Origin: Burkholderiales bacterium
GTDB lineage: Bacteria; Pseudomonadota; Gammaproteobacteria; Burkholderiales; SG8-41
Assembly (NCBI GenBank): GCA_043743335.1
Contig: JAYTWR010000149.1
Span: 11,924-75,923 of the forward strand
Direction of reading: 5' to 3'
DNA: 64,000 nt
In this document: positions 2,255 to 64,000 of the stretch, piece after piece
Position numbering within the stretch: the stretch's first letter is position 1
Layout: the number at the start of each line of letters is the position of its first letter
Made by a program: the position numbers and the translations under genes
Notes under the pieces: model-generated
What the model was told of the DNA's origin: nothing
The model's input: only the letters and a program-made list of their open reading frames with translations
The model's database searches: none

Positions 2255-2524
2255 TCTGGGCTGCTAACCGTCATTTTGGCTAGCGAAAATATAGCAATGG
2301 CTTACAAAATTTTCAAACACCAGTATACAGAGTCCCACTTCCGATTTTGATATCCTACTGTAACAGATTTGTATCTTTCAGTAGCACTGAATTTCCGCTG
2401 AGACGCGCAAGCGCCGTGATTTATGCCGAAGCGTGTGATGTGCTCACGCAAGGCAATATCGCGATGTCAGCGCCACGACCGATGCGGTCGCTTCGTCACC
2501 GGCATCTTATGACGAATCTGAATA

Positions 2525-2548
2525 GTCAATAAAAACAATAAGTTAGTG
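2525..2548 (+). repeat. AT-rich junction element, variant core AAACAATAAGTTA (2533-2545)
   Basis: GTCAATAAAAACAATAAGTTAGTG aligns to the CTCAATAAAATCAATTAGTTA subfamily; 1 core mismatch. Confidence 0.55.
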
Positions 2549-3459: not shown

Positions 3460-3546
3460 TGCAATGGCTATCCGTGAATCGGCCTTACCGTGCTGAGGCT
3501 ACAATACTGCGGGTGCTGGCGCTCGCGGTAATGAATTAAAAATATG

Positions 3547-3567
3547 TTTAAAATCAATTACTTATGA
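3547..3567 (+). repeat. AT-rich junction element, exact core AATCAATTACTTA (3552-3564)
   Basis: TTTAAAATCAATTACTTATG, 29 nt upstream of the acyl-CoA dehydrogenase ATG. Confidence 0.8.
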
Positions 3568-6407: not shown

Positions 6408-6434
6408 CTAATTGATTTTATTGAGTTATTTTAA
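6405..6434 (-). repeat. AT-rich junction element, exact core (6405-6417)
   Basis: TAACTAATTGATTTTATTGAGTTATTTTAA. It begins with the ADH stop codon and ends 7 nt before the next ATG. Confidence 0.85.
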
Positions 6435-9108: not shown

Positions 9109-9855
9109 TTACGCCGTGCCAAATCCCCGCTGGCGTCGGGCCTCGTACAGGCAAATACCCGCAGACACCGACACGTTCAAGCTCTCCACCGCCCCCAGCA
9201 TGGGAATCCGCACCAGTTCATCGCAGCTCTCGCGCGTGAGGCGGCGCATGCCCTCGCCTTCCGCGCCCAGCACCAGCGCGCGCGCGCCGTCGAGCTTGGC
9301 AGCATGCAGCTCCACCGTGGCATGTTCATCCGTGCCGGTGATCCACACGTTCCGTTCCTTGAGCTCGCGCATGGTGCGCGCGAGGTTGGTCACCGCGATG
9401 TAGGGCACGGTTTCCGCTGCGCCGCTGGCGACTTTGGACACCGTGGCGTTAAGACCCACCGCGCGGTCTTTGGGCGCGATCACCGCATGCACGCCCATCG
9501 CGTCGGCCACGCGCAGGCACGCACCGAGGTTGTGCGGATCGGTGACGCCATCGAGTATCAGCAACAACGGTGGCTCGCTGAGCGTTTCCAGCACATCATC
9601 AATATGGGTGGCGAGTTTGCGTGGCGCGACGCTGGCCGCTACACCCTGGTGGCGCGCGTTGCCGGTCATGCCATCGAGTCGTTTGCCGTCAACGCTCATC
9701 ACTCGCACACCACGCGTTTGCGCCAGTTTGACGACATCCGCGCTGCGGCGGTCACCACGCGCGGCATCGACGAAAATTTCGCGCACTTGGTCTGGCGCAC
9801 TGCGCAGGCGGCTGGTGACGGCGTGAAAGCCGTGAATGACGTGAGATTCACTCAT
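9109..9855 (-). CDS. rlmB: 23S rRNA (guanosine-2'-O)-methyltransferase RlmB
   Basis: SpoU/TrmH motifs ([25 protein letters not shown]) and the conserved position downstream of rnr. Confidence 0.85.
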
Positions 9856-9884
9856 AAAATACTCAATAAAATCAATTAGTTATG
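9856..9884 (+). repeat. AT-rich junction element, exact core AATCAATTAGTTA (9870-9882)
   Basis: AAAATACTCAATAAAATCAATTAGTTATG abuts the rlmB start codon (9853-9855) and fills most of the rnr-rlmB spacer. Confidence 0.85.
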
Positions 9885-12544: not shown

Positions 12545-13887
<1,343 letters not shown>

Positions 13888-13892
<5 letters not shown>

Positions 13893-19201: not shown

Positions 19202-21769
19202 TTGATACACACCTCAATCAGCAGGAAGGTAGCCTTTGGCGCTGGCGTCATTGTTTTGCTCGCCGTATTCGCCATGGGCACCACCTATTTCATGGCGGCG
19301 GCGGCGATCAAGGCACTGCAAGAGTCGAACGAGCTTTATCAGGCGATGCAGACATCGACCGCCGCCATGCAAGTGGACACCATGGCGGTAGGTTTTGATG
19401 TGCTGCAATATTTCGAAGCGGGCGCGCCGGCGCATCGCCAGTCTTATCAAGAACGCAGCCTACGGCTCGCCCAATTTGCCGAGCGCTTGCTCTCGCTGGC
19501 GCGGTTTCGTGCGTGGCAGGAAATCGGGCCGCTGGTGGCCGAAAAATTGCGGGCATTAGACAAACTCTGTTTAGACCTTATGGCTCAGCGCGATCAGGGC
19601 CAATCCGCTTCGGCGCAGCATGAAAACGTTGCCAAGCTGTTGAAATTACAGCAAGAAACGGTCGAGCTGGTCGGCACTCGTATCAAACCCAAATTGAAGG
19701 TACTGAGCAACGAGGCTGAAAACAAAGCCGGCAACGTAATGATGTGGGTGTTTTTTCTGGCGGGCGGCACGTCGCTACTGCTGTCGCTGTTGGCAGTCTT
19801 CGCGGGCCATTACGTCAGGCGCGCCATTGTCAAACCGGTGCAGCAGCTCGCGGCAAGCGCCAACACCGTGGCCAGCGGTGATTTGAGCCATCGCGTCAAG
19901 CTCACGGCGGACGCCGAGTATATGGCGCTGGCGCGAGACTTCAACAACATGGTCACGCAGTTGCAAATCACCACCGTGTCCAAAACCATGCATGAAGATC
20001 AGGCGACTCAACTACGCGCCTTGCTCGATGGCGTGCGCGATTACGCCATATTTTCCGTTGACGATGAAGGCTATGTCACGAGCTGGAACAGCGCCAGCAC
20101 GCGCATTCTGGGCTATCAGGCCAAAGAAATGGAAGGCGTTTCCTTTGCCCGCATCTTCAAAAATACCACCGAGGCGCGTGAAATCCGCGACGAAGGTTTT
20201 GCAGCCATTAAGGCGACTGGCCGTTTTGAAACCGATACCCATTTGATTAATGCCAGCGGCACGGAATTTGAAGCCAACCTCGTTGTCACGCCCCTCAGCG
20301 CCGTCACCGGTGACGCCAAGGGTTATTCGGTCGTAGTGCGTGACATCACCGAGCGCATGAAAACCGAGCGCCATATCGAGCAATTGGCGACGCGCGATCC
20401 CCTGACAGGCTTGTCCAACCGCAGCATGCTGATGGCGCAAATGTCAGCGGCGATTGCCCGTGCATCGCGCGCGCAATCACAACTGGTGGTGATGTTTATC
20501 GATTTGGATCGCTTCAAGATCATCAACGATACGCTGGGCCACACCGCCGGTGACGAGCTGCTGATCGAGTGCGCCAAGCGCCTGACCGACTGCGTGCGCG
20601 AGGATGATGTGGTGGCGCGGCTCGGTGGCGATGAGTTTGTGGTGCTGCTGTCCGGCGCAACCGGCGCTGCGAGCATTACGCCGATTGTGGATCGCATGCT
20701 CAAGTTGCTGACGACACCCTATCACTTGCGCGGCAATGACGCACAGACTTCCGCCAGCATCGGCATTTGCGTCTATCCCGCCGATGGCAGCGATGTCGCC
20801 ACGCTGATGAAAAATGCCGACATTGCGATGTACCACGCCAAGGCATTGGGTCGCAACAACTACCAGTTCTACGAAGAAGAAATGAACCAGCGCATGTTAA
20901 AGCGCACACAACTCGAACGTGAGCTGCGCGCGGCGCTGGAGAACGGCGAATTCGCCCTGTTTTATCAGCCGCAGGTTGTCGTGGAGACCGGCGCTATCCA
21001 GGGCGCTGAGTCGTTGATCCGCTGGCACCACCCGACGCGAGGATTGGTGTCGCCAGCCGAATTCATTCCCGTGGCCGAAGAAACTGGCCTAATCATCCCC
21101 TTGGGCGAGTGGATACTCGATCATGCCTGCCGCACGATTAAAACGTGGCACGAAAATGGCGTGAATATCCCCTACATTGTCGTCAACGTTTCAGCGGCGC
21201 AACTGAGCAATGATCTGGTGAGCTCTGTGCGCCAAGCCTTGGTCACGCACGGTATTGCGGCCAGTTGGCTGATGCTCGAAATCACTGAAACCATGCTCAT
21301 GGAGCGTGTCGAAGAAGCCATTTTGATCTTGCGCCGCATACGCGAGCTTGGCATACGCATCGCCATGGACGACTTCGGCACCGGGTACTCATCGCTCAGC
21401 GTGCTGCAACGCCTGCCGCTGGATACGCTCAAAATCGACCGCAGCTTTGTCAGCGCCATTGACGACGAGACCGACAACGCGCGCGCCGTGGCCATCATCG
21501 GTGCGATCATCGCCATCGCCAAAGAGCTCAATCTCAGCGTCGTGGCGGAAGGCGTCGAAACGCCCACGCAATTGGCGTTTCTGCGCACCCTCAATTGCGA
21601 TACCTATCAGGGCTACCTCTACAGCAAGCCCATCGATACCATTGCCATGGAAGCCCAGTATTCAGCACCGGCAAAATCTGTGCTGGAAGACGCCCAAGGT
21701 CGCGCCATTACCATGACGGTCAAGGTTAACCTCGAACTCTCTACTGAGGAAATTCAGTTAAGTGTTTGA
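19202..21769 (+). CDS. membrane sensor with HAMP-PAS-GGDEF-EAL domains (TTG start)
   Basis: Two TM helices, HAMP, a PAS region, intact GGDEF (RLGGDEFVVLL) and an EAL domain (ESLIRW, DDFGTGYSS, KIDRSF). Confidence 0.85.
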   Translation: MIHTSISRKVAFGAGVIVLLAVFAMGTTYFMAAAAIKALQESNELYQAMQTSTAAMQVDTMAVGFDVLQYFEAGAPAHRQSYQERSLRLAQFAERLLSLARFRAWQEIGPLVAEKLRALDKLCLDLMAQRDQGQSASAQHENVAKLLKLQQETVELVGTRIKPKLKVLSNEAENKAGNVMMWVFFLAGGTSLLLSLLAVFAGHYVRRAIVKPVQQLAASANTVASGDLSHRVKLTADAEYMALARDFNNMVTQLQITTVSKTMHEDQATQLRALLDGVRDYAIFSVDDEGYVTSWNSASTRILGYQAKEMEGVSFARIFKNTTEAREIRDEGFAAIKATGRFETDTHLINASGTEFEANLVVTPLSAVTGDAKGYSVVVRDITERMKTERHIEQLATRDPLTGLSNRSMLMAQMSAAIARASRAQSQLVVMFIDLDRFKIINDTLGHTAGDELLIECAKRLTDCVREDDVVARLGGDEFVVLLSGATGAASITPIVDRMLKLLTTPYHLRGNDAQTSASIGICVYPADGSDVATLMKNADIAMYHAKALGRNNYQFYEEEMNQRMLKRTQLERELRAALENGEFALFYQPQVVVETGAIQGAESLIRWHHPTRGLVSPAEFIPVAEETGLIIPLGEWILDHACRTIKTWHENGVNIPYIVVNVSAAQLSNDLVSSVRQALVTHGIAASWLMLEITETMLMERVEEAILILRRIRELGIRIAMDDFGTGYSSLSVLQRLPLDTLKIDRSFVSAIDDETDNARAVAIIGAIIAIAKELNLSVVAEGVETPTQLAFLRTLNCDTYQGYLYSKPIDTIAMEAQYSAPAKSVLEDAQGRAITMTVKVNLELSTEEIQLSV

Positions 21770-21790
21770 TTTTATTGATAATTTTAAACG
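21759..21790 (-). repeat. AT-rich junction element, exact core (21759-21771)
   Basis: TAAGTGTTTGATTTTATTGATAATTTTAAACG contains the stop codon of the GGDEF-EAL gene, between convergent genes. Confidence 0.8.
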
Positions 21791-23660: not shown

Positions 23661-23680
23661 CTAACTAATTGTTTTATATG
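23661..23680 (-). repeat. AT-rich junction element, variant core (23662-23674)
   Basis: CTAACTAATTGTTTTATATG; the terminal ATG is the MoxR start codon. Confidence 0.7.
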
Positions 23681-24592
23681 ACAAAAATAAACGAGGCTCT
23701 CGCGCAGGTCAGTCACATCATTTTGGGTAAAGAGCGCCAAATCCGCTTGGCCCTAGCGTGCCTGATCGCGCGCGGCCATTTGTTGATTGAGGACGTGCCC
23801 GGCGTCGGCAAAACCACCCTCGCCCACGCGTTAGCCGGCACCTTGGGGCTGGCGTTTCACCGCATCCAGTTCACCAGCGATTTACTGCCGGCGGATGTGC
23901 TGGGCGTGGCGGTATACAACAGCGACGCCGCCCAATTTGAGTTCCACCCCGGGCCAATTTTTTCGCAGGTGGTGCTGGCCGACGAAGTCAACCGCGCTAC
24001 ACCCAAAGCGCAAAGCGCGTTGCTCGAAGCCATGGAAGAACAGCAGGTCACTATCGAAGGCGAAACGCGCAAACTGCCGGAGCCCTTTTTTGTCATCGCC
24101 ACGCAAAATCCCTCACGCCAGATCGGCACGTTTCCGCTGCCGGAGTCGCAACTGGATCGCTTCTTAATGCGTATCGAACTCGGCTACCCAGACGCCGCTG
24201 CCGAACGCGCGCTGCTGCGCGGTGAAAACCGCCGCGATTTGCTGAGTCAACTTAAGCCTGCCTTGCAGCCCGCCGATTTGCTGGCGCTGCAGCGCGAGGC
24301 GCGGCAGGTGCATGTCTCCGACGCGCTGCTCGATTACATCCAAGCGCTGGTCAACCACACGCGCCACAGCGCCGGTTACGCGGGCGGCCTATCGCCGCGC
24401 GCGGCACTGGCGCTGGTGCAGGCCGCGCGCGCTTGGGCGCTGCTGGATGCGCGTACACACGCCGTGCCGGAAGACGTGCAAGCCATTCTGCCGGGCGTGG
24501 TGAGTCACCGGCTGCAAGCCGCCAACGATGGCAGCGGCGGCAGTGGCAATGACGTGGCGGTGCGTCTCTTGGCTGCGGTGGCGATTCCGTAG
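23678..24592 (+). CDS. MoxR-family AAA+ ATPase
   Basis: LIEDVPGVGKTT Walker A, ADEVNRATPKAQSALLEAMEE, FFVIATQNP. Confidence 0.9.
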   Translation: MTKINEALAQVSHIILGKERQIRLALACLIARGHLLIEDVPGVGKTTLAHALAGTLGLAFHRIQFTSDLLPADVLGVAVYNSDAAQFEFHPGPIFSQVVLADEVNRATPKAQSALLEAMEEQQVTIEGETRKLPEPFFVIATQNPSRQIGTFPLPESQLDRFLMRIELGYPDAAAERALLRGENRRDLLSQLKPALQPADLLALQREARQVHVSDALLDYIQALVNHTRHSAGYAGGLSPRAALALVQAARAWALLDARTHAVPEDVQAILPGVVSHRLQAANDGSGGSGNDVAVRLLAAVAIP

Positions 24593-25612: not shown

Positions 25613-27591
25613 ACGCAGTCCAGCCTGCCGCCATCAGCCTGCGCAATACCGTGTGGATTACGCTGACGTTGGCGTTGATTGCCGCACCGCACGCCGAGCG
25701 CCTGCCTTGGTGGTTGAGCCTGCTGGCAGCAGCGTTTTGCGCTTGGCGGCTGTATATCGCGCGCATGCGACTGGCGCTGCCCGCGCGTTGGCTCATGGTT
25801 TTGATCGTGGCCGCCGGATCCGTGGCCATTTTTGTGCAGTACCGCACTTTGCTCGGGCGCGATGCGGGCGTCGCGCTGCTGGTGCTGATGATCTCGTTAA
25901 AGCTGATGGAAACGCGCACCCAGCGCGATGGCATGGTACTCGCCTTCATCGGCTACTTTTTGGTCATTACCAATTTTTTCTACTCGCAGTCGATCCCTAT
26001 GGCGCTGTATTTGCTGGCCTGTGTGTGGCTGATCACCGCCACCATGATGGGGCTGCAATACACCTACACGCGCGAACCCGCCGCTTATCGTACGCAAGTG
26101 CGCGCTCAATTGCGCGCCACGGGCATCATGCTGGCGCAGTCGGCGCCGCTGATGATTGTTTTCTTTTTGCTGTTTCCGCGTGTGCAGGGGCCGCTGTGGG
26201 GCATGCCGTCAGATGCCTTCGCCGGCGTCACGGGCCTCTCAGAAAGCATGAGTCCGGGCACGCTGAACAAACTGGTGTTTTCCGAAGAAGTCGCCCTGCG
26301 CGCCACGTTTGCGGGCCGTGTGCCGCCGCAGAACCGGCTGTATTGGCGCGGGCCGGTACTGATTGATTTTGATGGCCGCACGTGGACTGCCGCGCCGCGT
26401 GGGCTACGCAATCAAATCGAAGTGAATCGCCGCGAAAACCCTGTGCGATACACCGTGACCGTAGAGCCGCACAACCGGCGTTGGCTGTTTGCGCTGGATA
26501 TCCCCGGCACACTGCCGCCGCGCGCGATGATCACGGTAGATCATCTGTTACTGTCGCAAATGCCCATCACCAGTCGTCTGCGCTACGACATGGAGTCGTT
26601 TCTCGACTACACCATCGGCGCGGATTTCAACCCAATTTCTGCGCGCATGCTGGCGTTGCCGCGCAACTTCAATCCGCAAACCCGCGAGCTGGGACAACAA
26701 CTGCGCGCGCAACACAACGACAATCAGGCCATCGTGACCGCCGCGCTCACGCTGCTGCGCGAGCAGAAGTTTGTCTATACGCTAGAGCCGCCGCTGCTTG
26801 GCACGCATGCGGTGGATGAGTTTTTATTCAAAACACGCGCGGGCTTTTGCGAACACTTTGCTTCGGCCTTTGTCGTGCTGATGCGCGCGGCGGGCGTGCC
26901 GTCGCGGGTAGTCACCGGCTATCTGGGGGGCGAATACAACTCGCTCGGTGAGTACTTAATTGTGCGTCAATCCGATGCGCACGCGTGGGCCGAAGTGTGG
27001 ATCGAAAATCGCGGCTGGGTGCGCGTCGATCCGACCAACTCGGTGTCGCCCGCGCGCGCCGAGGGCGGTCTCGCGGCGGCGCTGCCGGACGGCATTTCGC
27101 TGCCGCGTAGCCTGCGTGAAAGCTATCCGCTACTGCATCAGTTGTCCTTGACGCTGGATTCGCTGGCCAATGCCTGGAACCAAACCATCCTCGGCTACAA
27201 CCTCGAAACCCAGCGCGCGCTGATGTTGCGTGCAGGGCTGGAAGACGCCGATTGGCAAACGTTGGTGATACTGCTGATCGCGGCCACCGGCGTCACCACG
27301 TTGCTGCTGGCGCTGTTCATGCTGCGCAACCGTGCGCGGCAGCGCGACCCCGTGCTTGATGCCTGGCTGTTGTTCTGCGCCAAAGCCGCGCATGCGGGCG
27401 TGGCACGGCACGCCGCCGAAGGCCCGCAGGATTTCGCCAACCGCTTAGCCAAAGCGCGGCCTGACATCGCGGCTGACGCGCAGGTGATTACGCGACTCTA
27501 TGTTGGGTTACGCTACGCCAGCACTGAAGCCCCCGGCGAGCGCCATGAGCTACAGCGGCGCGCGCAGCAGTTCACCATAAAATCCATTTAA
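25609..27591 (+). CDS. tgpA: transglutaminase-like membrane protein (TgpA family)
   Basis: ATGA overlap with the DUF58 stop, polytopic N-terminus, and Cys-His-Asp core (FCEHFASAF, SDAHAWAEVW, VRVDPT). Confidence 0.8.
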   Translation: MNAVQPAAISLRNTVWITLTLALIAAPHAERLPWWLSLLAAAFCAWRLYIARMRLALPARWLMVLIVAAGSVAIFVQYRTLLGRDAGVALLVLMISLKLMETRTQRDGMVLAFIGYFLVITNFFYSQSIPMALYLLACVWLITATMMGLQYTYTREPAAYRTQVRAQLRATGIMLAQSAPLMIVFFLLFPRVQGPLWGMPSDAFAGVTGLSESMSPGTLNKLVFSEEVALRATFAGRVPPQNRLYWRGPVLIDFDGRTWTAAPRGLRNQIEVNRRENPVRYTVTVEPHNRRWLFALDIPGTLPPRAMITVDHLLLSQMPITSRLRYDMESFLDYTIGADFNPISARMLALPRNFNPQTRELGQQLRAQHNDNQAIVTAALTLLREQKFVYTLEPPLLGTHAVDEFLFKTRAGFCEHFASAFVVLMRAAGVPSRVVTGYLGGEYNSLGEYLIVRQSDAHAWAEVWIENRGWVRVDPTNSVSPARAEGGLAAALPDGISLPRSLRESYPLLHQLSLTLDSLANAWNQTILGYNLETQRALMLRAGLEDADWQTLVILLIAATGVTTLLLALFMLRNRARQRDPVLDAWLLFCAKAAHAGVARHAAEGPQDFANRLAKARPDIAADAQVITRLYVGLRYASTEAPGERHELQRRAQQFTIKSI

Positions 27592-27605
27592 AATCAATTA
27601 GTTAC
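27577..27605 (+). repeat. AT-rich junction element, exact core (27592-27604)
   Basis: ATAAAATCCATTTAAAATCAATTAGTTAC contains the tgpA stop codon, lies 25 nt upstream of the SDR ATG, and is 28/29 identical to the 28451 copy. Confidence 0.9.
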
Positions 27606-28446: not shown

Positions 28447-29436
28447 ATGAATAAAATTCATTTAAAATCAATTAGTTACAAAATATTTCCCCACGCGGTG
28501 TGGGCGCTGCTGCTGGCTGCAGGCGCGTCATTCGCCCAGCCCTACCCCACCAAACCCGTGCGCATTGTCGTGCCCTACCCGCCCGGCGGCGGCGTGGATG
28601 TGGTGGCGCGCGTGGTGGGCCGTAAGCTGACGGACACGTTGGGCCAGCCGGTGATTGTCGAAAATCGCGGTGGTGCCTCGGGCGCTTTGGGCGCTGACAT
28701 CGTGGCTAAAGCCCCGCCCGACGGCTACACCATGGGCCTCATGACCAGCACCGTGCTGATGGTGCCCGCGCTGCAAAAAGTGCCTTACGACGCGGCCAAA
28801 GACTTTGCGCCGATTATTCTGTTTGCCTCGATATCGAACATCTTGGTGGTGCATCCATCGCTGCCGGTGAAATCATTGCAGGACGTGATGCGTCTTGCGC
28901 GCGAGCGTCCCGGCGAGCTCACCCACGCCACCTCCGGCCCCGGCAGCGTACCGCATCTGATGATGGAGCTGCTGCGCACCATGACGCCGCGCTTTGACAT
29001 TGTGCACGTGCCGTACAAAGGCAACGCGCAAGCCATTACCGATTTGCTTGGCGGGCACATCACCATGCACATTTCGTCCATGCTGTCGGCTGTGCCCTAC
29101 ATCAAAACCGGTCGCTTACGCCCGATAGGCGTCACCAGCGCCAAGCGCTCACGCGCGGTGCCAGACGTGCCAACGTTCGCCGAGTCCGGCGCGCCCGGCT
29201 ATGACGTGAGTTCGCTGTGGGGATTTCTCGCGCCCGCGCAAACGCCGCCGGACATCATTAACCGGCTGTATGGCGATATCGGCAAAGTGCTACGTTACCA
29301 AGATGTCAACGACCAGCTCGTCGGGCAAGGCGCGGATATTTCCGGCGCAGGCCCGCAGGAATATGGCGCGCTGTGGCGGGCCGAACTCGCCAAATGGCCC
29401 AAGGTAGTAGCTGCGGCAAAAATCAAGGCGGAATAA
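28447..29436 (+). CDS. Bug/TctC-family tripartite tricarboxylate transporter substrate-binding protein
   Basis: QPYPTKPVRIVVPYPPGGGVDVVAR and VPYKG; 329 aa. The first 12 codons are encoded by the AT-rich junction element. Confidence 0.85.
   Translation: MNKIHLKSISYKIFPHAVWALLLAAGASFAQPYPTKPVRIVVPYPPGGGVDVVARVVGRKLTDTLGQPVIVENRGGASGALGADIVAKAPPDGYTMGLMTSTVLMVPALQKVPYDAAKDFAPIILFASISNILVVHPSLPVKSLQDVMRLARERPGELTHATSGPGSVPHLMMELLRTMTPRFDIVHVPYKGNAQAITDLLGGHITMHISSMLSAVPYIKTGRLRPIGVTSAKRSRAVPDVPTFAESGAPGYDVSSLWGFLAPAQTPPDIINRLYGDIGKVLRYQDVNDQLVGQGADISGAGPQEYGALWRAELAKWPKVVAAAKIKAE
28451..28479 (+). repeat. AT-rich junction element, exact core (28466-28478)
   Basis: ATAAAATTCATTTAAAATCAATTAGTTAC lies inside the first codons of the Bug gene (NKIHLKSISY). 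Confidence 0.9.
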
Positions 29437-30419: not shown

Positions 30420-30515
30420 GCACACCGAGCGTGCGGTGAACTCAGCGCGATACGGCGTCAGGCCTGCTATCATTGGGGCCGCCGCAATGTGGCTGGAATT
30501 AAATGCCTGCTACAG

Positions 30516-30544
30516 TATAATAATCAATAAAATCAATTAGTTAC
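30516..30544 (+). repeat. AT-rich junction element, exact core (30531-30543)
   Basis: TATAATAATCAATAAAATCAATTAGTTAC, 25 nt upstream of the malonyl-CoA decarboxylase ATG. Confidence 0.85.
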
Positions 30545-33077: not shown

Positions 33078-33119
33078 TAACTATTTGAATAATTTAATAA
33101 AATTATTTGTAGTATTTTC
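33078..33119 (-). repeat. AT-rich junction element, degenerate/expanded copy (core 33078-33090, 1 mismatch)
   Basis: TAACTATTTGAATAATTTAATAAAATTATTTGTAGTATTTTC encodes the tatD tail ENTTNNFIKLFK and its stop codon. Confidence 0.6.
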
Positions 33120-33839: not shown

Positions 33840-34832
33840 TTAGGCTCGCAGCAGTTGGGCGTAACGCAGCATCAAATCTTCCAGTAGCAGACGCGGGTTT
33901 AGAGGGTGATTCACAATCCGCTGAAAACGCACCAATTCGCGGTGATAGCGCATAATTTCCAATGTATTCATGCGTTTTGTGGCAGAAATTAGCGCATCTT
34001 TTCGGTCAGGATTGTAACGTAATGGCTGCCCCAAACTCAGTCGCACCAAATCATAACTCCAGCGCTGTAACCAATTGATTATTTGAGGAATTGGCTGAGC
34101 AGCGCAACGCTCTGCCACGGCCAGCGGGTCGAATTCCCGGCTGGAAAGCCCCTCCAGCAGTTGCTGCCGCCCTGCCCAATAGTCCGGCGTATCGAGTTCT
34201 ACGGCCAGCAAAGGGGCTCCGCCAGCTTGGGCCAAGGCCAAATCGGGCTGCGAAATGCCGCTTTTTGCCAACCAGGCGGCGGCTTCCGGCGCAGAGGGCG
34301 GTGGCAGTGCGATTTGTTGACAGCGGCTGCGTAGGGTCGCAGGCAGCATGTGAGACCGGTCGCTGACCAGTAAGAAATGGGTGTGGGGCGGCGGCTCTTC
34401 TAGGCTTTTCAACAACGCATTGGCCGCGTTGACGTTCATCGCTTCAGCGGGCTGCACCACCACCACTTTGACGCCACTGCGATGCGCGCTGATATTGATA
34501 AACTCTGCTAAGGAACGCACCTGCGCTATCGATATATCGCGCTTTTTCTTTTTATCGGACGGTTCGTCGTCAGCGGCGGCTTCAGCGATTTCCGGCTGTA
34601 ACAGGCGGTAATCGGGGTGGTTCCCGGTGTCGAACCAATGGCAGGCTTGACACGCGCCGCAGGCCTGCAGCGGCGCAGTCGGTGCCTCGCACAGCAGGCC
34701 TTTGGCCAGCGCTGCGGCAAACTCACGCTTGCCGATGCCGGCTGGACCTTTGAATAAAAGGGCATGCGGCAACTGCGCCGCGCGCTGGGCGAGTTGCTGG
34801 TACTGCCTTTCATGCCATTTATAAATAGTCAT
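33840..34832 (-). CDS. holB: DNA polymerase III delta' subunit
   Basis: [22 protein letters not shown] zinc module, [11 protein letters not shown]. Confidence 0.85.
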
Positions 34833-34858
34833 TTAAAACAATTACTTACAATTACTTC
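34829..34858 (+). repeat. AT-rich junction element with duplicated core (variant AAACAATTACTTA, 34836-34848)
   Basis: TCATTTAAAACAATTACTTACAATTACTTC. ACAATTACTT occurs twice in tandem. The copy carries the tmk stop, the holB start and the tmk tail. Confidence 0.75.
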
Positions 34859-35452
34859 TTCTACTGATTGTTTAACTTCAGGTAACGTTAAAGTGGCGTC
34901 CACCACCCGTATGCGCTGCGGATGTTCACGCGCGCGCCGCAGATAGCCGTCACGCACCCGGTCGAAAAACGAGCGGCCCTCCTGCTCGAAACGATCCGGC
35001 TCGCGCGCGGCCTGCGTACGCGCCTTGCCGACTTCGCTGGGCACGTCAAAATACAGCGTCAAGTCAGGTTGCAAGCTGCCCTGCACCCAAGTCTCCAACG
35101 CCGCAATGCGCTCCCAAGCCAGCCCGCTGCCCCCAGACTGATAGGCGAAGGTGGCGTCGGTGAAACGGTCGCAAACCACCCAAATGCCAGCATCGAGGGC
35201 GGGGCGTATGACTTTATCTAAGTGCTCGCGCCGCGCCGCAAACATCAGCAAAGCCTCGGTTTCGGGGTGCAGCTTCTGCGCCTTGGCCAGCAGCAACTCG
35301 CGCAGCCGCTCGCCCAGCGGCGTGCCGCCGGGTTCGCGCGTGAGCTGCACCTTGACGCCGCGCGCCTCGAGAAAGCCAGGTAGCCACGTCAGATGCGTGC
35401 TTTTGCCAGCGCCGTCCATGCCTTCCAGCGTAATGAATTTGCCACGTGTCAT
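34829..35452 (-). CDS. tmk: thymidylate kinase
   Basis: [14 protein letters not shown] and DRF..ATFAYQ; ATGA overlap with holB. Confidence 0.92.
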
Positions 35453-38943: not shown

Positions 38944-39047
38944 ATGACTTCCCCTTTTCTGGTTTGACCCGTGCTGCTGGACCCCCTCGGTCGCGGCATT
39001 CAGGTTTAGCGTGCTATTTTACCACAAATTAAAATGCCCTACATACA

Positions 39048-39075
39048 AAAAATCATTTAAAAACAGATACTTAGG
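39048..39075 (+). repeat. AT-rich junction element, degenerate copy (core 39061-39073, 2 mismatches)
   Basis: AAAATCATTTAAAAACAGATACTTAGGG aligns to the 13871 and 61684 copies; lies in the fabG-acpP spacer. Confidence 0.5.
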
Positions 39076-39083
39076 GTTTTCGA

Positions 39084-40756: not shown

Positions 40757-40759
40757 GAT

Positions 40760-40808
40760 AAATTATTCAATAAAATCAAATAGTTAAATAGTTAAATCGT
40801 TAAATACG
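40760..40808 (+). repeat. AT-rich junction element, exact core (40774-40786), followed by an 8-bp tandem array
   Basis: TTATTCAATAAAATCAAATAGTT then AAATAGTT AAATCGTT AAATACG. It spans the whole fabH-fabD spacer, including the fabH stop. Confidence 0.85.
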
Positions 40809-43199: not shown

Positions 43200-43228
43200 T
43201 TATAACTAATTGATTTTAATAAATATTA
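43200..43228 (-). repeat. AT-rich junction element, exact core (43202-43214)
   Basis: TATAACTAATTGATTTTAATAAATATTAT in the yceD-rpmF spacer. Confidence 0.85.
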
Positions 43229-43301
43229 TTATCTGAACGATACAGGCGCAAGTTCACAACCTGCCCTCACTTTCGCCAATCCGTTACCAAAACTTTACTT
43301 G

Positions 43302-44635: not shown

Positions 44636-44656
44636 TGTAACTATTTGATTTTATAC
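44636..44656 (-). repeat. AT-rich junction element, exact core (44638-44650)
   Basis: TGTAACTATTTGATTTTATAC sits just after the maf stop, where the Bug pseudogene's signal peptide should be. Confidence 0.8.
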
Positions 44657-44680
44657 GGATTTTTAACATCAACCAGCCAA

Positions 44681-45426: not shown

Positions 45427-45438
45427 GAAGCACCGTTA

Positions 45439-46548: not shown

Positions 46549-48642
46549 CTACTTCAGCCGCATCACCGCATCAACAGCTACCGCTCCGTGCCCGTCAACC
46601 CCCACAATCACCGGATTGATCTCCACCTCCGCCAGCCTATCCGCGTGATCGGCAATCAGCCACGACACGCGGCTGACCGTATCGGCTAGCGCGTCAATAT
46701 CGCACGCGGGTTTGCCGCGATAACCTTGCAGGATTTTCGCGCCCTTGAGGCGCAGCACGAGTTCTCGTGCGCTGGCCGCATCGAACGGCGCATAGGCACG
46801 CACCACGTCCTGAAACAGCTCGGCATACACGCCGCCCATGCCCAGCATGACCAACGGGCCGAATGAGGGGTTGTTGAGCGCGCCGATGATGAACTCGACG
46901 CCAGTGGCCATTTCTTCCACCAGCCAGCCACGGATGCGCGCCGTGGGTTGATGCGCAGGCACGGCCTGCTGCATCATCATAAGTGATTGTTTTAATTGAG
47001 TAATATTGGATATGCTAATACGCACGCCGCCGGCTTCGGTTTTGTGCGGCAAGTCGGGACTGACGACTTTGAGTGCCACCGGAAAATTCAGCTCACAGCG
47101 TGCGAGCGCGGCCTCGTCGCCCGCCGCGATGAACATCCGCCGGGGCGTGGCGATGCCGTAAGCGGCTAGGCAAGCTTTGCCCTGCAATTCATCCACGCCG
47201 TCGGTGCCGTTCATCGGCAGCGGCTGTTTTGCGCAAGCGCGCACCGGCGCGCGCCGCACGGCGGCCCGCTCGCACTGGCGTGTGAAATGATTCAATGCCG
47301 CAGCGGCAAACACCAAGCGGCTCGGCGCTTCAAAACACGGCACGCCGCCGGCTTCTACCGTCGGCAACCACGATGCTGAGTCGTTGACGGCACCGGAGAG
47401 GCTGACGAGTATGGGCTTATCACTGGCGTTGGCATCGGTGACAAAATGCTCGGCCCACACGGGCGCGTCGCGCCCTGGATACGAGCGCAAAAACAGCATG
47501 TCCACGTTGGCGTCATCGAGCACAGCTTGTGTGGCTGCGCGAAACGCGGGTTCGTTTTGTGCGATGGCGGCGGTGATGTCGATGGGGTTCGCCATCGACG
47601 CAAAATCCGGCAGCACGGGTTTTAACGCTGCCAGTGTCGACGCGCTCATAGCCGGCAGCGCCAACTGCGCGCGCTCGCAGGCATCAGCCAGCAACACCCC
47701 TGCTCCGCCGCTGGCGGTGACGATCGCGGCTCGGTTGCCGCGCGGGCGTTTGCGCGAACGAAACACGCGCGCGGCGTCAATCAAATCGTAAATTTCATGA
47801 ATCTCAATAAAGCCGCCTTCACGAAACGCGTCACGATAATAATCGTAATCTTCAGTGAGATTGGCCGTGTGCGACACCGCTGCGCGACTACCGGCGTGCG
47901 TGTTGCCGACTTTCCACACCGCGATGGGCTTACCGATTTCGAGCGCGCGGCGGCCCAGCGCGCGCAGGCGTTTGCCGTCGCTGATGCCTTCCATGTACAC
48001 CGCGATCAACTTGGTGGCTTCGTCGGCGAGAAAATACTCGATGAAATCCAGCGCACCCAAGCTGCTTTCATTGCCGGTAGAAACCATGTGGTCAAAGCCG
48101 ATGCCAGCTTCTTGGCAGAACGTCATGATCGAATAGGCAAAGCCGCCGCTCTGCGAAATCATCGCCACCGGCCCGCCGCGCCAATCGGTCTTGCGAAACG
48201 TCGCGCCGAATCCGGCAAACACGCGCGTGCGCAAATTCATCATACCGATGCAATTGGGCCCCACCGCGCGTACGCCGGAGGTTTTAAGCGCCGCCTGTAA
48301 TTGCGCTTCGAGCGCTGCACCCCGTTCGCCGATTTCGCGAAAGCCCGCGCTCAAAATCACCGCGTGGGTCATGCCGTTGCGCCCGCAGGCTTCGATGGCG
48401 CCGGGCACATCCACCGCCGGCACCGCGATGACCGCCAAATCACAGCGCTGCGGCAGCGCGTCGGGGCTGGCGTAACACGGCAAGCCGTTGATTTCGGTGT
48501 AGCGCGGATTCACCGCAAATACCTTACCGGCGTAGCCCTGATGCGTCAGCAAGTGCAGCGGCGCGCCACCCGGCCGACGCCTATCCTGCGTGGCGCCGAC
48601 AATGGCCACGGATGACGGGTTGAACAGCGGCTCTAGTGACAT
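46549..48642 (-). CDS. ADP-forming acyl-CoA synthetase (CoA-binding + succinyl-CoA-ligase-like + ATP-grasp fusion)
   Basis: SVAIVGAT...YAGKVFAVNP, AVGPNCIGMM, C-terminal ATP-grasp region; 697 aa. Contains an in-frame AT-rich element copy. Confidence 0.8.
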   Translation of the reverse strand: MSLEPLFNPSSVAIVGATQDRRRPGGAPLHLLTHQGYAGKVFAVNPRYTEINGLPCYASPDALPQRCDLAVIAVPAVDVPGAIEACGRNGMTHAVILSAGFREIGERGAALEAQLQAALKTSGVRAVGPNCIGMMNLRTRVFAGFGATFRKTDWRGGPVAMISQSGGFAYSIMTFCQEAGIGFDHMVSTGNESSLGALDFIEYFLADEATKLIAVYMEGISDGKRLRALGRRALEIGKPIAVWKVGNTHAGSRAAVSHTANLTEDYDYYRDAFREGGFIEIHEIYDLIDAARVFRSRKRPRGNRAAIVTASGGAGVLLADACERAQLALPAMSASTLAALKPVLPDFASMANPIDITAAIAQNEPAFRAATQAVLDDANVDMLFLRSYPGRDAPVWAEHFVTDANASDKPILVSLSGAVNDSASWLPTVEAGGVPCFEAPSRLVFAAAALNHFTRQCERAAVRRAPVRACAKQPLPMNGTDGVDELQGKACLAAYGIATPRRMFIAAGDEAALARCELNFPVALKVVSPDLPHKTEAGGVRISISNITQLKQSLMMMQQAVPAHQPTARIRGWLVEEMATGVEFIIGALNNPSFGPLVMLGMGGVYAELFQDVVRAYAPFDAASARELVLRLKGAKILQGYRGKPACDIDALADTVSRVSWLIADHADRLAEVEINPVIVGVDGHGAVAVDAVMRLK
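46980..47010 (-). repeat. AT-rich junction element copy inside a CDS, in frame (variant core 46980-46992)
   Basis: TAAGTGATTGTTTTAATTGAGTAATATTGGA. The reverse complement aligns to AAAATACTCAATAAAATCAATTAGTTA and encodes SNITQLKQSL in the acyl-CoA synthetase. Confidence 0.75.
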
Positions 48643-48672
48643 AACTAGTTGATTTTATTGAATATTTTTTAA
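48640..48672 (-). repeat. AT-rich junction element, exact core (48642-48654)
   Basis: CATAACTAGTTGATTTTATTGAATATTTTTTAA carries the acyl-CoA synthetase start codon, the deacetylase stop codon and the deacetylase tail LKNIQ. Confidence 0.85.
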
Positions 48673-49742: not shown

Positions 49743-50834
49743 ATGAAGCTCGCTACATTCATGATGCCGCTCCACCCGCCGGGTAAGAGCTATCCGCAAT
49801 CGCTGCGCGAAGATCGCGAGGCCATTATTCTCGCCGACGAGCTCGGCTATGAAGAAGCCTATGTCGGCGAACACGTCACCGACGCCGCAGAAACCGTCAC
49901 GCACTGCATGACCTTTCTCGCCACGCTGATTCACGCCACCAAGCGCATTAAGCTCGGCACCGGCACTATCAATATTCCGACGTCGCATCCGGCGGCCATT
50001 GCCGCCCAGGTGGCGATGATGGATAACCTGCTCGAAGGGCGCTTCATCATGGGCATTAGCCCCGGCGGGCTGGCGTCTGACGCTGAGGTGTTCGGCAATC
50101 TGGACAAAGACCGCAACGCCATGTTTGTCGAGGGCATCAACATGGTGCTCAAGATCTGGGAATCCGAGCCGCCGTATAACCTTGAAGGCAAATACTGGAA
50201 AGTCACCACCGAAAAAACCAGCATTCCTGAAATCGGTCAGGGCCGTATCCTGCGCCCGTTCCAGAAGCCGCATCCGCCTATCGTCGGCACGGTCGTGGCA
50301 CCGTACTCGAAAGGCGTCATTGCGATGGCAGAGCGCGGCTGGCTGCCGATTTCAGCCAATTTTTTGATGCCCGCATGGGTGAAAACCCATTGGCCGAATT
50401 ACGCCGAAGGCAAAAAAAATATCGGCCAGGTTGCCGATACCGCAGACTGGCGCATCGCCAAAAGTATTTTTGTCGCCGACGACGAAGCCACAGCGCAGCG
50501 CTACGGTAAATCGGCAGAAGGCCCGTATCACTTTTATTTCAAGCAACTGGTGCGCAAGCTGGTGGGCTTTAGCGGGCGCAGTAATTTATTCAAGGTCGAT
50601 CAAAGCATGCCGGATTCGGCGATTACGCCAGAGTACGTCACCGACAAGCTGGTGCTCGCCGGCACGGTCAACAGCGTGGTCGATCAGATACTCGCGTTTC
50701 GTGAAGCCGTCGGCGACTTCGGCACGCTGGTTTACGCCTGCCACGACTGGATCGATCCGGCGCTGGGCAAGCGCAGCATGCAGTTGATGGCGGAGCAGGT
50801 GATGCCGAAGGTCAATGCGGCTCTGGGAAAATAG
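49743..50834 (+). CDS. LLM-class (luciferase-like) flavin-dependent oxidoreductase
   Basis: MKLATFMMPLHPP...GYEEAYVGEH is typical of the LLM family. The upstream in-frame extension is tandem-repeat sequence. Confidence 0.8.
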   Translation: MKLATFMMPLHPPGKSYPQSLREDREAIILADELGYEEAYVGEHVTDAAETVTHCMTFLATLIHATKRIKLGTGTINIPTSHPAAIAAQVAMMDNLLEGRFIMGISPGGLASDAEVFGNLDKDRNAMFVEGINMVLKIWESEPPYNLEGKYWKVTTEKTSIPEIGQGRILRPFQKPHPPIVGTVVAPYSKGVIAMAERGWLPISANFLMPAWVKTHWPNYAEGKKNIGQVADTADWRIAKSIFVADDEATAQRYGKSAEGPYHFYFKQLVRKLVGFSGRSNLFKVDQSMPDSAITPEYVTDKLVLAGTVNSVVDQILAFREAVGDFGTLVYACHDWIDPALGKRSMQLMAEQVMPKVNAALGK

Positions 50835-50840
50835 AACAAT

Positions 50841-50863
50841 CCATATAAATCAAGGAGTTACAT
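50841..50863 (+). repeat. AT-rich junction element, exact core AATCAAGGAGTTA (50848-50860)
   Basis: CCATATAAATCAAGGAGTTACAT. The variable NNNN is GGAG, giving the AAGGAG SD of the downstream TTG-start gene. Confidence 0.7.
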
Positions 50864-52767: not shown

Positions 52768-52808
52768 TTAAATAACCCATTGATTTTTAACAGTTTTAGT
52801 ATTTTATT
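52768..52808 (-). repeat. AT-rich junction element, exact core (52773-52785)
   Basis: TTAAATAACCCATTGATTTTTAACAGTTTTAGTATTTTATT fills the entire FAH-Gfo spacer. Its left arm TTAAATAACCCA is shared with the 54841 copy. Confidence 0.75.
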
Positions 52809-54840: not shown

Positions 54841-54876
54841 TTTTAAATAACCCAATAAAATCAATTACTTAAATAG
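54841..54876 (+). repeat. AT-rich junction element, exact core (54859-54871)
   Basis: TTTTAAATAACCCAATAAAATCAATTACTTAAATAG, 10 nt beyond the prpE-like stop codon. Confidence 0.85.
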
Positions 54877-61683: not shown

Positions 61684-61713
61684 CGTAAGTATTTGTTTTT
61701 ATTATGTTTTATT
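61684..61713 (-). repeat. AT-rich junction element, variant core (61686-61698)
   Basis: CGTAAGTATTTGTTTTTATTATGTTTTATT fills the sucA-sucB spacer. Its core is identical to the 13878 copy. Confidence 0.7.
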
Positions 61714-64000
61714 TTAATTCTCTTCGCCTGCTGACAACGGACGTGGCTGGTTTTTCACGCTCAGCGGCTCGCTGCCACCCGACAGGGTCAAAGCCTGATT
61801 GACCAACTCTTTTTGCTGCGCGTCATGCAGCGATTTGTAACCGGCCGCCGGTGTCGCGGAAGACTCTCGGCCCGCGTAAAACAGCTTTTGATGCGGCAGT
61901 AAATTGCGCATCAGATAGTGCTGAATGTGTCGCCATGCCCCCTGATTGCGCGGCTCTTCCTGACACCACACAATTTCGGCGGCGTTCTTGTAGCGCACAA
62001 TCAGCGAGCGGAAATCGTCGTGTGAAAATGGATATAACTGCGCGATGCGCACGATAGGCAAATGCTTGATGCCGCGCGCCCGACGCTCGGCGCGGATGTC
62101 GTAAAACACCTTGCCGCTGCACAGAATCACGCGCTTCACTTGATCAGGCTGGATATCGTTTTCTTCCCAATCCTCGTTCACTGGCTTGAATTTGTCGTTG
62201 GCGAATTCTTCCAGCGGCGACACCGATTCTTTGTGCCGCAGCAAACTCTTCGGCGAAAAAATTACCAACGGCTTGCGATACGGGCGAATCATCTGTCGGC
62301 GCAGCAGGTAGTACATTTGCACCGGCGTGGCCGGCACGCAAATCTGCATGTTGTAGTCGGAGCACAGTTGCAAGAAACGCTCGATGCGCGCCGACGAATG
62401 CTCCGGCCCTGCGCCCTCGTAGCCGTGCGGCAGCATCATGGTCAGGCCGCACAAGCGTCCCCATTTGACTTCACCGGAAGCGATAAATTGATCGATCACG
62501 ACTTGCGCGCCATTGGCGAAATCGCCGTATTGCGCTTCCCAAATGACCAAATCATTCGGGCCTGCCGTGGCATAGCCGTATTCGAAACCGAGCACAGCCG
62601 CTTCTGACAACACGGAATCAATGACGGCAAAGTCACCCTGCTTCGACGACAAGTGTTGCAACGGAATGTGTATGCCTTGATCCCACCGTTCGCGATTCTG
62701 GTCATGCAGCACCGCATGGCGATGGAAGAACGTGCCACGTCCGGCATCCTGCCCGGAGAGACGTATTGCGTAACCTTCGTGCAGCAGCGTGGCATACGCC
62801 AACGACTCAGCCATGCCCCAATCCAGCGCCAGCTTGCCTTCGGCCATCAAACGCCGATCTTGCATGATCTTGTCTACGCGCGGGTGCAACTGGAAATTCG
62901 CGGGCACTTCACACAATTTGCGCGCGAGCATTTGCAGTGTTTCAAGCGGCAGGCGCGTATCGTCTTGCTCGTTCCACTTGATGCCTTTATACGGTGCCCA
63001 GTTGGCCTCGAACGGCGGCTTGTAATTCGACAAAATGGTTTGGTTGGTGTGATAGCCGCGATCGAGTGCATCGCGGCAAGTGGCAACCGCGGCCTCGCCA
63101 TCGGCCTCGTGGGTCACACCCTCACGCACCAAGCGATCCGCGTACACTTTGCGCGGCGTCGGATGCGAATGGATGCGCTTGTACATCAGCGGCTGGGTAA
63201 CCATCGGCTCATCCTGCTCGTTGTGGCCGAGGCGGCGATAACACACGAGATCGATTACCACATCCTTGTGAAACTTCATGCGGTAATCGAGCGCGATTTC
63301 GGTGACAAAACAAACCGCTTCCGGATCGTCGCCATTGACATGGAAAATCGGCACTTCCAGCATCTTGGCCACATCGGAGCAATACAGGGTCGAGCGCGAA
63401 TCACGCGGATCAGAGGTCGTGAAGCCAATCTGATTGTTGATAATGATGTGTACTGTGCCGCCCGTGCCGTAGCCGCGCGTCTCAGCCAGATTCAAGCCTT
63501 CCTGAATCACGCCTTGTCCAGCGAAGGCCGCATCGCCGTGAATAAGCACCGGCAACACCTGCCCGCCCGAGTGATCTTTGCGCCGATGCTGACGCGCGCG
63601 CACAGAGCCTTCAACTACCGGATTGACGATTTCCAGATGCGACGGGTTGAACGCCAGCATGGCGTGCATCGGCCCGCCGGGGGTCATGATGTTAGAGGAT
63701 TGGCCATCGTGATACTTCACGTCACCGGCCAGCACTTCAGGATTTTGCTTGCCTTCAAACGACGAGAACAAATCTTTGGGCATTTTGCCCAGCGTATTCA
63801 CCAACACGTTCAAACGCCCGCGATGCGCCATGCCGATCACCAGCTCTTGCACGCCCGCGGCCCCTGCACGTTGCAGCAGATTGTCCAGCAGCGGAATCAG
63901 CGCGTCGCCGCCTTCGAGCGAGAAGCGCGTCTGACCGACGTACTTGGCGTTGAGGTATTTTTCCAGCGTCTCGGCGGCAGTGAGCCGTTCGAGGATGTGT
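61714..64000 (-). CDS. sucA: 2-oxoglutarate dehydrogenase E1 component (N-terminus beyond window)
   Basis: GMAHRGRLNVL, HGDAAFAGQG, and the frame stays open upstream of the GTG at 63852 to the window edge. Confidence 0.95.
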   Translation of the reverse strand, partial: HILERLTAAETLEKYLNAKYVGQTRFSLEGGDALIPLLDNLLQRAGAAGVQELVIGMAHRGRLNVLVNTLGKMPKDLFSSFEGKQNPEVLAGDVKYHDGQSSNIMTPGGPMHAMLAFNPSHLEIVNPVVEGSVRARQHRRKDHSGGQVLPVLIHGDAAFAGQGVIQEGLNLAETRGYGTGGTVHIIINNQIGFTTSDPRDSRSTLYCSDVAKMLEVPIFHVNGDDPEAVCFVTEIALDYRMKFHKDVVIDLVCYRRLGHNEQDEPMVTQPLMYKRIHSHPTPRKVYADRLVREGVTHEADGEAAVATCRDALDRGYHTNQTILSNYKPPFEANWAPYKGIKWNEQDDTRLPLETLQMLARKLCEVPANFQLHPRVDKIMQDRRLMAEGKLALDWGMAESLAYATLLHEGYAIRLSGQDAGRGTFFHRHAVLHDQNRERWDQGIHIPLQHLSSKQGDFAVIDSVLSEAAVLGFEYGYATAGPNDLVIWEAQYGDFANGAQVVIDQFIASGEVKWGRLCGLTMMLPHGYEGAGPEHSSARIERFLQLCSDYNMQICVPATPVQMYYLLRRQMIRPYRKPLVIFSPKSLLRHKESVSPLEEFANDKFKPVNEDWEENDIQPDQVKRVILCSGKVFYDIRAERRARGIKHLPIVRIAQLYPFSHDDFRSLIVRYKNAAEIVWCQEEPRNQGAWRHIQHYLMRNLLPHQKLFYAGRESSATPAAGYKSLHDAQQKELVNQALTLSGGSEPLSVKNQPRPLSAGEEN

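Follow-up and report, generated by a model that had tools for sequence, protein, structure and literature searches.

An IHF-site-like, AT-rich motif at gene boundaries overlaps stops, starts and recoded protein tails in a clade of freshwater Burkholderiales

The window analysed here is a 64-kb stretch of contig JAYTWR010000149.1 (GenBank assembly GCA_043743335.1, a Burkholderiales bacterium), and the subject is an AT-rich motif of about 28 nt that lies across the junction of tmk and holB and recurs at many other gene boundaries. Both genes are on the minus strand and were identified with Pfam: tmk encodes a thymidylate kinase of 207 amino acids (34829..35452) and holB the delta' subunit of DNA polymerase III (33840..34832). 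The first-pass annotation, made from the letters alone, had placed the tmk tail, the tmk TGA and an overlapping holB ATG within an element at 34829-34858. This is borne out, as the minus strand there reads GAA GAA GTA ATT GTA AGT AAT TGT TTT AAA TGA, the tmk tail and stop, and the two genes share the bases ATGA. The motif copy itself spans 34819..34848 (minus strand; 15.0 bits against the motif profile) and encodes the end of the kinase (...VSNCFK*), its TGA and the holB ATG, which falls at motif positions 17-19. With its start codon inside the motif, holB has no Shine-Dalgarno sequence.

The copy at this junction is one base shorter than the canonical motif TTGATTTTAAATGA. Because of the missing base the canonical TGA (positions 9-11) reads TGT, and tmk is therefore three codons longer. 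In three more distant relatives (L020, L022 and L030; L numbers denote related loci) tmk stops at the motif TGA (AGT ATT TGA), where the window has TGT TTT AAA TGA. The core had also been described as tandemly duplicated here. The repeat is real, the 10-mer ACAATTACTT standing twice in exact tandem at 34838-34857, but a duplication event did not produce it: a true 10-nt tandem duplication is ruled out, since the tails of relatives are equally long without the repeat and such a duplication would shift the frame, so that the repeat arose by substitutions. The same three relatives have three tandem motif copies in the tmk-holB spacer (~10605-10700), about 30-40 nt apart, with the tmk TGA in the first and the holB ATG in the third, and the single copy of the window looks like the collapse of such a triple array. 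In Escherichia coli, which has the same conserved yceD-rpmF-plsX-fab-...-tmk-holB-tatD cluster, the tmk TGA likewise overlaps the holB ATG in an ATGA coupling. The E. coli junction, however, is GC-normal and without the motif, whereas in the window the last 10-16 tmk codons are recoded into it.

The motif was defined by repeat finding, a scan for AT islands and an nhmmer profile seeded with 18 copies. Its consensus is TAAsTAwTTGwTTTTAwwTGAnTATTTTA, and 19 good copies and about five weak ones occur in the 64 kb, at 59% GC, with about 11 copies on the plus strand and about 12 on the minus. No variation is seen at T1, A2, A3, T8, T9, G10 and T12-T14, position 4 is either C or G in every copy, and positions 22-28 form a T-rich tract with at least 90% A/T, T25 being present in 95% of the copies; the constancy of TAA and TTG was apparent beforehand, both in the unbiased repeat families and in the nhmmer matches. 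The core YAANNNNTTGATW has 22 exact matches against 1.23 expected, a number reached in 0 of 100 shuffles, and GTAACTAATTGATTTTAAATG occurs exactly at 27585-27605 and 28459-28479 (both minus strand), with 0 expected by chance. The canonical motif carries stop codons in all three frames (TAA at 1-3, TAA at 5-7, TGA at 9-11).

Folding of eight copies gave no secondary structure (minimum free energy 0 to -2.6 kcal/mol; z from -0.41 to +1.31, positive in six of the eight), and neither this folding nor the repeat analysis revealed inverted repeats, a hairpin or terminal inverted repeats in the motif copies. The aligned copies have no duplicated flanks of the kind left by target-site duplication, and they do not qualify as intrinsic terminators, defined by a GC-rich hairpin and a T run. 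An Rfam scan at gathering score returned no family for the motif, its sole match being a tRNA-Leu at 12319-12403. For the 12-13-mers of the motif the literature yielded only lists of predicted sites for integration host factor (IHF) and OmpR.

Placed on the Pfam-supported gene map of the window, the motif is found at 18 of the 44 co-directional junctions, one of the five convergent and one of the five divergent ones, and in 16 of 27 co-directional spacers 8-160 nt long. Ten copies are sense and eight antisense with respect to the co-directional genes on either side. Fifteen of the 18 co-directional copies end 37 nt or less before the next start codon, the acpP and mscS copies being 105-205 nt from it, and only three of about 25 copies are intragenic (one in acdA and two weak ones, in hflX and holB). 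Where coding sequence is overlapped, the spacer is in most cases shorter than the motif: the spacers concerned measure -4 nt (tmk|holB), 12 nt (acdA|deacetylase), 13 nt (tatD|ankyrin) and 23 nt (GGDEF-EAL|hyp239).

The copy located 10 nt past the fabG stop (39044..39073, minus strand), orthologous in at least 15 related loci, is the one for which a role in transcription could best be argued. It lies upstream of a conserved extended -10 element of acpP, TGGTAAAAT, by 52 bp in the window and by 42-43 bp in relatives, and AAGTATTTGTTTTTAAA matches 12 of the 14 specified positions of the UP-element consensus AAAWWTWTTTTNNNAAA; in E. coli, promoters are found at the junctions before rpmF, fabD and acpP. 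That the motif would generally be a promoter component, as an UP element or -35 box when sense or as a TAAAAT -10 box when antisense, is nevertheless highly improbable. No copy scores as a sigma-70 promoter, none of the six promoter-like sites matching the -35/-10 pattern in 27-45 kb coincides with a copy, both orientations are in use, most copies lie too close to the next start codon for transcription to begin in between, and the divergent regions hold a copy in one case out of five only. A promoter or UP-element role fits the acpP copy only. As a separate observation, the spacing difference at this junction between the window (38941-39083) and its relatives (spacers of L005-L032) corresponds to one helical turn.

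Comparison with relatives (one genome per species, with a best Tmk match of 85%; the close matches are all metagenome-assembled genomes) delimits a clade of freshwater betaproteobacteria with ~57-62% GC, assigned to the order Burkholderiales by their labels. The cluster yceD-rpmF-plsX-fabHDG-acpP-fabF-pabC-mltG-tmk-holB-tatD is syntenic in 32 related loci. About 22 of these have the motif at tmk|holB, some in two or three tandem copies, and most of the 32 have it, with orientation kept, at fabG|acpP, at fabH|fabD and, antisense, at the 3' end of tatD (the last also in L016, L023, L029 and L031). Orthologous positions hold the motif down to about 65% Tmk identity. Elsewhere in the window, the hisZ|purA and rnr|rlmB copies recur in L125, which of the relatives recovered is the closest (HisZ 93% identical), and in L128 (89%), and the copy at the 3' end of the GGDEF-EAL gene recurs in L125; in the region common to the window and this closest relative, every copy is present in both. 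Outside the clade, in L033-L080 and in the orthologous cluster of E. coli, the motif is absent.

Two further cases concern acdA, which encodes an ADP-forming acyl-CoA synthetase. The copy at the 3' end of the deacetylase gene is kept in L122 (10884-10915) despite a different downstream gene, and the copy 5' of acdA is kept in L130 (9981-10003) despite a different upstream gene. Separate in these relatives, they correspond in the window to one shared antisense copy (48642..48671, plus strand), which encodes the deacetylase tail LKNIQ* and contributes its T1 to the acdA ATG; the arrangement suggests a joining of gene neighbourhoods at the motif. Another antisense copy (46980..47009, plus strand, 14 bits) lies wholly within acdA, encodes NITQLKQSL in AT-rich codons and is conserved at the DNA level in three lineages (the window, L130 and L131).

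The first-pass annotation had proposed that insertion of the element near a gene end terminates the upstream frame and offers a new start, so that several proteins would have element-encoded, lineage-specific ends that genomes without the element do not share. Pfam confirmed the identities of the proteins concerned (thymidylate kinase, DNA polymerase III delta', TatD, HisZ, a polysaccharide deacetylase, TgpA, a HAMP-PAS-GGDEF-EAL protein, FabH and a TctC/Bug receptor). The tails it quoted are all correct (tatD ENTTNNFIKLFK, hisZ AKNIS, deacetylase LKNIQ*, tgpA TIKSI*, GGDEF-EAL EEIQLSV*, fabH VRI*), and the Bug N-terminus, MNKIHLKSISYK, is as given. The motif does overlap coding ends, except that fabH and hisZ have at most the stop codon in common with it. 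What did not stand is insertion as the cause: the motif supplies stops, starts and a few residues, and several of the tails in question have counterparts in orthologues.

In Tmk, the counterpart of EEVIVSN in every relative, Methylophilaceae among them, is E[EK]IIS[TN]I*, and the clade-specific part is CFK only. The TatD ending TT.NF.KLF is found in all orthologues, including those of GC-rich genomes without the motif, where it is spelled GAA AAC TTC TTC CGC CTG TTC, and the Pfam model is matched over its full length, up to the final residue of the protein; the degenerate copy antisense to tatD (33078..33107, plus strand; a weak profile match) overlaps 27 nt of this conserved C-terminus, NNFIKLFK*. 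The VRI of FabH is equivalent to VRM or VRF, and the motif begins only past the stop, the fabH TAA coinciding with motif positions 1-3 in L005-L007 and L010. HisZ has a conserved length of 386 amino acids and a tail, W.v.K.IS, common to close relatives; the hisZ-purA copy (13861..13890, minus strand) shares with the gene the TAA only, at motif positions 1-3, likewise in L125 and L128.

The remaining ends are more variable. After a conserved Phe, TgpA has two to seven variable residues, and TIKSI is lineage-specific (the metagenome relatives used here have at most 55% identity and are of no use for junction synteny); the antisense copy between tgpA and an SDR gene (27575..27604, minus strand) encodes IKSI*. 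The deacetylase has four to 13 variable residues after AAEF/Y, spelled by the antisense motif as SLKNIQ in the window and PVKNNQ in L122. The GGDEF-EAL copy (21759..21788, plus strand), located between convergent genes, holds the last three to four codons of the protein and its TGA; the L125 protein ends in LSTDIL* right before the motif, and that of the window is four residues longer, reaching the motif TGA. In the Bug/TctC receptor, residues 2-11 are the antisense motif (28449..28478, minus strand) and form the Lys-rich n-region of a plausible signal peptide. Lineage specificity thus holds for three to six terminal residues in four proteins (CFK of tmk and the tgpA, deacetylase and GGDEF-EAL tails), the only ones truly read from the motif. 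It does not hold for tatD, fabH, hisZ and most of tmk, whose ends are conserved outside element-bearing genomes; the tails of tatD, fabH and hisZ, and that of tmk for the most part, are conserved protein sequence that has been recoded in AT-rich codons.

The codon composition of tails and gene bodies, a comparison that had been recommended, indeed differs through a strong bias of the tails towards A or T at third codon positions (AT3). Among the last 12 codons, those ending in A or T number 12 in tmk (26% in the body), 11 in tatD and ten in the deacetylase gene. Pooled over L001-L012, AT3 reaches 0.84 in the tmk tails and 0.70 in those of tatD, the gene bodies having 0.29-0.33; GC-rich betaproteobacteria that fall outside the clade come nowhere near such an enrichment, with 0.20-0.28 in the tails and 0.13-0.19 in the bodies. 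Among the eleven lineages of the clade that were compared, most retain the codons AGT AAT TGT TTT AAA with hardly a base changed, and this AT3 signature of the tails is specific to the clade.

As for stops and starts, open reading frames end at the motif TAA (the Zn-dependent alcohol dehydrogenase gene and hisZ) or TGA (the GGDEF-EAL gene), and the motif ATG serves as the start codon of holB and moxR. The moxR copy (23662..23691, plus strand) has the probable ATG (23678) at positions 17-19, as in holB. The best-scoring copy of the window (20.5 bits; 6405..6434, plus strand) provides the stop of the alcohol dehydrogenase gene as its TAA, and the ATG of an AMP-ligase gene follows 36 nt after T1. 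An arrangement of stops in all three frames followed by an ATG had been noted for one orientation: the stops are there, and the ATG is unused as a start in the two GTAAC...AAATG copies, because both are antisense to the local genes.

These comparisons bear directly on the mobile-repeat model of the first-pass annotation, in which a sequence resembling a MITE (miniature inverted-repeat transposable element) or a repetitive extragenic palindromic (REP) sequence inserts near gene ends, truncates the frame and donates termini and starts. Like REP sequences and bacterial interspersed mosaic elements (BIMEs), the motif is dispersed, mostly between co-directional genes and rarely at divergent junctions (18/44 against 1/5), and copy number varies among relatives. 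Two copies flanking the SDR gene are identical at 28 of 29 positions, short lineage-specific tails of three to six residues exist, and the window holds a RAYT/IS200-like fragment (45142-45426), truncated and some 500 nt away from the closest copy. Known MITEs (Correia/NEMIS with its IHF site, RPE, ERIC, YPAL) also fuse to open reading frames, to which they donate stop codons and C-terminal or signal-peptide residues (PMC2229807). MITEs measure 100-200 bp, with terminal inverted repeats, TA target duplications, stable hairpins and filled or empty sites, whereas the motif is 28 bp long, unstructured, devoid of such repeats and duplications and conserved in position; it also lacks the stable palindromic hairpin of REP and BIME sequences. 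Its orthologous positions and orientation persist to ~65% Tmk identity, the closest relative has all copies of the common region, and conserved protein makes up the tails of tatD, fabH and hisZ and the greater part of that of tmk. No precise empty site was found when spacers were compared with those of relatives: motif-less spacers are unrelated or decayed, never the same spacer minus 28 nt, so that absences resemble decay or replacement. For the cases cited in its support the model is largely refuted, and we regard it as very unlikely overall.

A conserved protein-binding site accounts better for these features, and it is on balance probable that IHF, or some other nucleoid protein that is sequence-specific and bends DNA, has the motif as its high-affinity site, maintained at gene boundaries and not inserted there. 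The invariant core is the IHF consensus YAANNNNTTGATW, the reverse complement of WATCAANNNNTTR (PMC8942017), and the predicted IHF sites of Dickeya include the 13-mers TATCAATTAGTTA and TATCAAATAGTTA, which differ from the motif only at the first (W) base. A T/A tract lies 8 bp beyond the core, on its WATCAA side. In the lambda H' site, of the high-affinity type, a dA+dT-rich tract is likewise found about 8 bp 5' of WATCAA. We infer an IHF-type site because the core matches the consensus and the tract is spaced as in H'; the likeness to IHF sites of the lambda attP H' type (WATCAANNNNTTR with an upstream dA+dT tract) extends to the exact 13-bp match, to the asymmetry of the site and to its use in either orientation. 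Recognition of duplex DNA, as opposed to an RNA signal, is indicated by the orientation independence of the motif, by its unstructured nature, by the occurrence of a copy between convergent genes and by the conservation of one within a gene. The ihfA and ihfB genes, expected in the host as in Proteobacteria generally, do not lie within the 64-kb window. Among other regulators, FNR (TTGAT-N4-ATCAA), ArcA, Lrp, the ARG box, Fis and Fur were set aside by eye, as a second half-site or key positions misfit. The H-NS site TCGATAAATT matches the antisense motif at eight of ten positions, also by eye, and H-NS is a candidate alternative nucleoid protein.

If the IHF-type reading is right, the motif would act on double-stranded DNA at gene boundaries. 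The genome is compact, and many of its spacers are too short to contain the motif, which is there superimposed on the flanking coding sequence in one of three ways: conserved C-termini are recoded with A/T-ending synonymous or conservative codons (EEVIVSN of tmk, NNFIKLFK of tatD, the internal acdA stretch); the motif falls in tails that are variable by nature (tgpA, deacetylase, GGDEF-EAL) or in a signal-peptide n-region (Bug); or its own TAA or TGA and ATG are used as stop and start codons. A role in chromosome or operon architecture may be envisaged.

Several aspects weigh against this reading. The naming of IHF would follow from the consensus match as its one anchor, and the extended motif is restricted to a single clade although IHF is universal in Proteobacteria. 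Copies are present in only one of the five divergent, promoter-bearing regions, which is unusual for regulatory IHF sites. The motif holds about 30 bits of information where about 12.5 would be enough for 22 sites in 128 kb, an excess less characteristic of ordinary protein-binding sites than of repeats that spread through copying or biased uptake. Copies are also gained and lost, since their density varies among relatives (three per 10 kb in the window and L130 against about 0.5 in L122 and L124) and the FAH|GFO2 spacer differs wholly: 41 nt with the motif in the window, an unrelated GC-rich 16 nt without it in L124. Finally, a Shine-Dalgarno sequence precedes two of the 15 genes after a motif against nine of 23 others (p=0.14, non-significant), a trend that may leave room for a contribution at the RNA level.

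An RNA element between cistrons, either a Shine-Dalgarno-independent initiation region or enhancer (through ribosomal protein S1) or an RNase E site for the downstream gene, would also be compatible with the proximity of most co-directional copies to the next start, with the use of the motif ATG by holB and moxR, with the unstructured copies and with a weaker folding around start codons after the motif (-6.5 against -9.2 kcal/mol). The latter trend, however, is non-significant (p=0.09), as is the former. Sense and antisense copies, which would yield different RNAs, are about equally common, and AU-richness does not explain the conserved G10 and S4. Copies are further located between convergent genes (21759), far from the start in acpP and mscS, and, conserved, within acdA; this internal copy argues against a role solely in translation initiation. 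We consider the RNA explanation quite unlikely.

The excess of information, together with the orientation independence, the restriction to one clade and an invariant core flanked by AT tracts, would be expected of a DNA uptake sequence, a competence substrate that evolves by molecular drive, accumulating by uptake bias and homologous recombination wherever tolerated. The uptake signal sequence (USS) of Haemophilus has a layout of 29 bp, resembled by the core and AT tracts of the motif. Replacement of the entire FAH|GFO2 spacer would fit as well, and so would the coding copies, set at poorly conserved residues or accommodated by codon choice. The Haemophilus USS and the Neisseria DNA uptake sequence (DUS), which are short, clade-specific, orientation-independent and conserved in position like the motif, are fitted into coding DNA in the same two manners (PMC2817400). 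The motif nonetheless departs from them in being AT-rich and nearly confined to gene boundaries, with three of ~25 copies intragenic against 35-65% for known uptake sequences. It is also sparser (0.35 per kb in the window against about 1) and more degenerate in its core, only six copies having an exact 16-mer in common, and the exact IHF consensus with its correctly spaced A-tract would be a coincidence. Uptake sequences are so far known only from Neisseriaceae and Pasteurellaceae. An uptake sequence seems unlikely, but it is the foremost of the new alternatives. With similarly little confidence, one may think of an undescribed clade-specific signal, whether an AT-rich uptake sequence or a punctuation or recombination site where genes join, with a drive strong enough to recode the Tmk and TatD C-termini and a stretch of AcdA; gene joining is hinted at by the shared deacetylase/acdA copy, the 28/29 repeats flanking the SDR gene and the ~30-bit information content.

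The motif belongs with the dispersed sites of nucleoid-protein type and the intergenic repeats, and is notable for its strong recoding of conserved essential genes. It is closest in distribution to the RIP/BIME-1 elements of E. coli, being dispersed, extragenic and intercistronic, with an abundance of the order of one per 3-5 kb. It differs from these and from ordinary IHF sites by a far stronger conservation over ~28 positions, its occurrence in one clade, the absence of flanking REP palindromes and its routine overlap with stops, starts and tails. Two codes are here written in one DNA, a motif of protein-binding type dictating codons of conserved essential genes in a GC-rich genome and, locally, the last three to six residues, the stops and the starts. 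For annotation, this means that AT-rich tails rich in K, N and I are real coding sequence in this clade, not frameshift artefacts, and that starts without a Shine-Dalgarno sequence inside the motif (holB, moxR) are plausible. If IHF is the ligand, a high-affinity site at about 40% of gene junctions would give an abundant uncultured freshwater lineage an unusually regular chromosome architecture; if the motif is an uptake or recombination signal, such signals would extend to a new order.

Other copies of the window follow the same pattern. The copy filling the fabH-fabD spacer (40757..40786, minus strand) is preceded by three tandem 8-mers TTTAAC(G/T)A (40787-40810), located between the fabH stop and the motif; these recall the intergenic TAACTGA direct repeats that are reported for Beggiatoaceae (PMC4679880). 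The sense copy between rnr and rlmB (9853..9882, minus strand) ends at the rlmB ATG and is the one kept in L125 and L128. Antisense copies lie 28 nt upstream of an acyl-CoA dehydrogenase start (3535..3564, minus strand), 25 nt upstream of a malonyl-CoA decarboxylase start (30514..30543, minus strand), between yceD and rpmF (43203..43232, plus strand) and between sucA and sucB (61686..61715, plus strand), and another copy is found 15 nt past the acs stop (54842..54871, minus strand). Two copies are weak: one between a luciferase-like gene and GFO1 (50831..50860, minus strand, 5.0 bits) contains the GFO1 Shine-Dalgarno sequence, and the other fills the FAH-GFO2 spacer (52773..52802, plus strand, 4.5 bits). 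In L125, a moderate copy (8 bits) occurs at 16540-16567 within a DNA polymerase III alpha (dnaE-like) gene. The near-identical copies at 27577-27605 and 28451-28479 are direct repeats in the same orientation on either side of the 780-nt SDR gene, which could reflect chance among about 230 copy pairs or the trace of recombination or of a cassette-like gain of this gene.

Some surroundings deserve mention. The copy at 44638..44667 (plus strand) lies between maf and a frameshifted Bug/TctC pseudogene (44603-45120), which is followed by the RAYT/IS200-like fragment, the remnant of a Y1 transposase on the minus strand, and by a PIN-domain toxin gene with an antitoxin-like frame upstream of it (45754-46502, minus strand); the whole stretch, 44603-46502, has the appearance of a small decayed island with remnants of mobile DNA. 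A 1.3-kb gap at 2255-3592 contains pseudogene fragments, namely a Bug N-terminal fragment (2984-3262, plus strand), a Bug C-terminal-like one (2565-2801, minus strand) and a TauD-like one (2678-3043, minus strand), and two motif copies, of which one is at 2516..2545 (minus strand). The convergent spacer between DLH and rlmB carries about nine copies of a tandem 9-nt unit, CTCGTTGTT (8990-9078), and the tRNA-Leu gene (anticodon CAG) at 12319-12403 is on the plus strand, flanked by the minus-strand genes rnr and purA.

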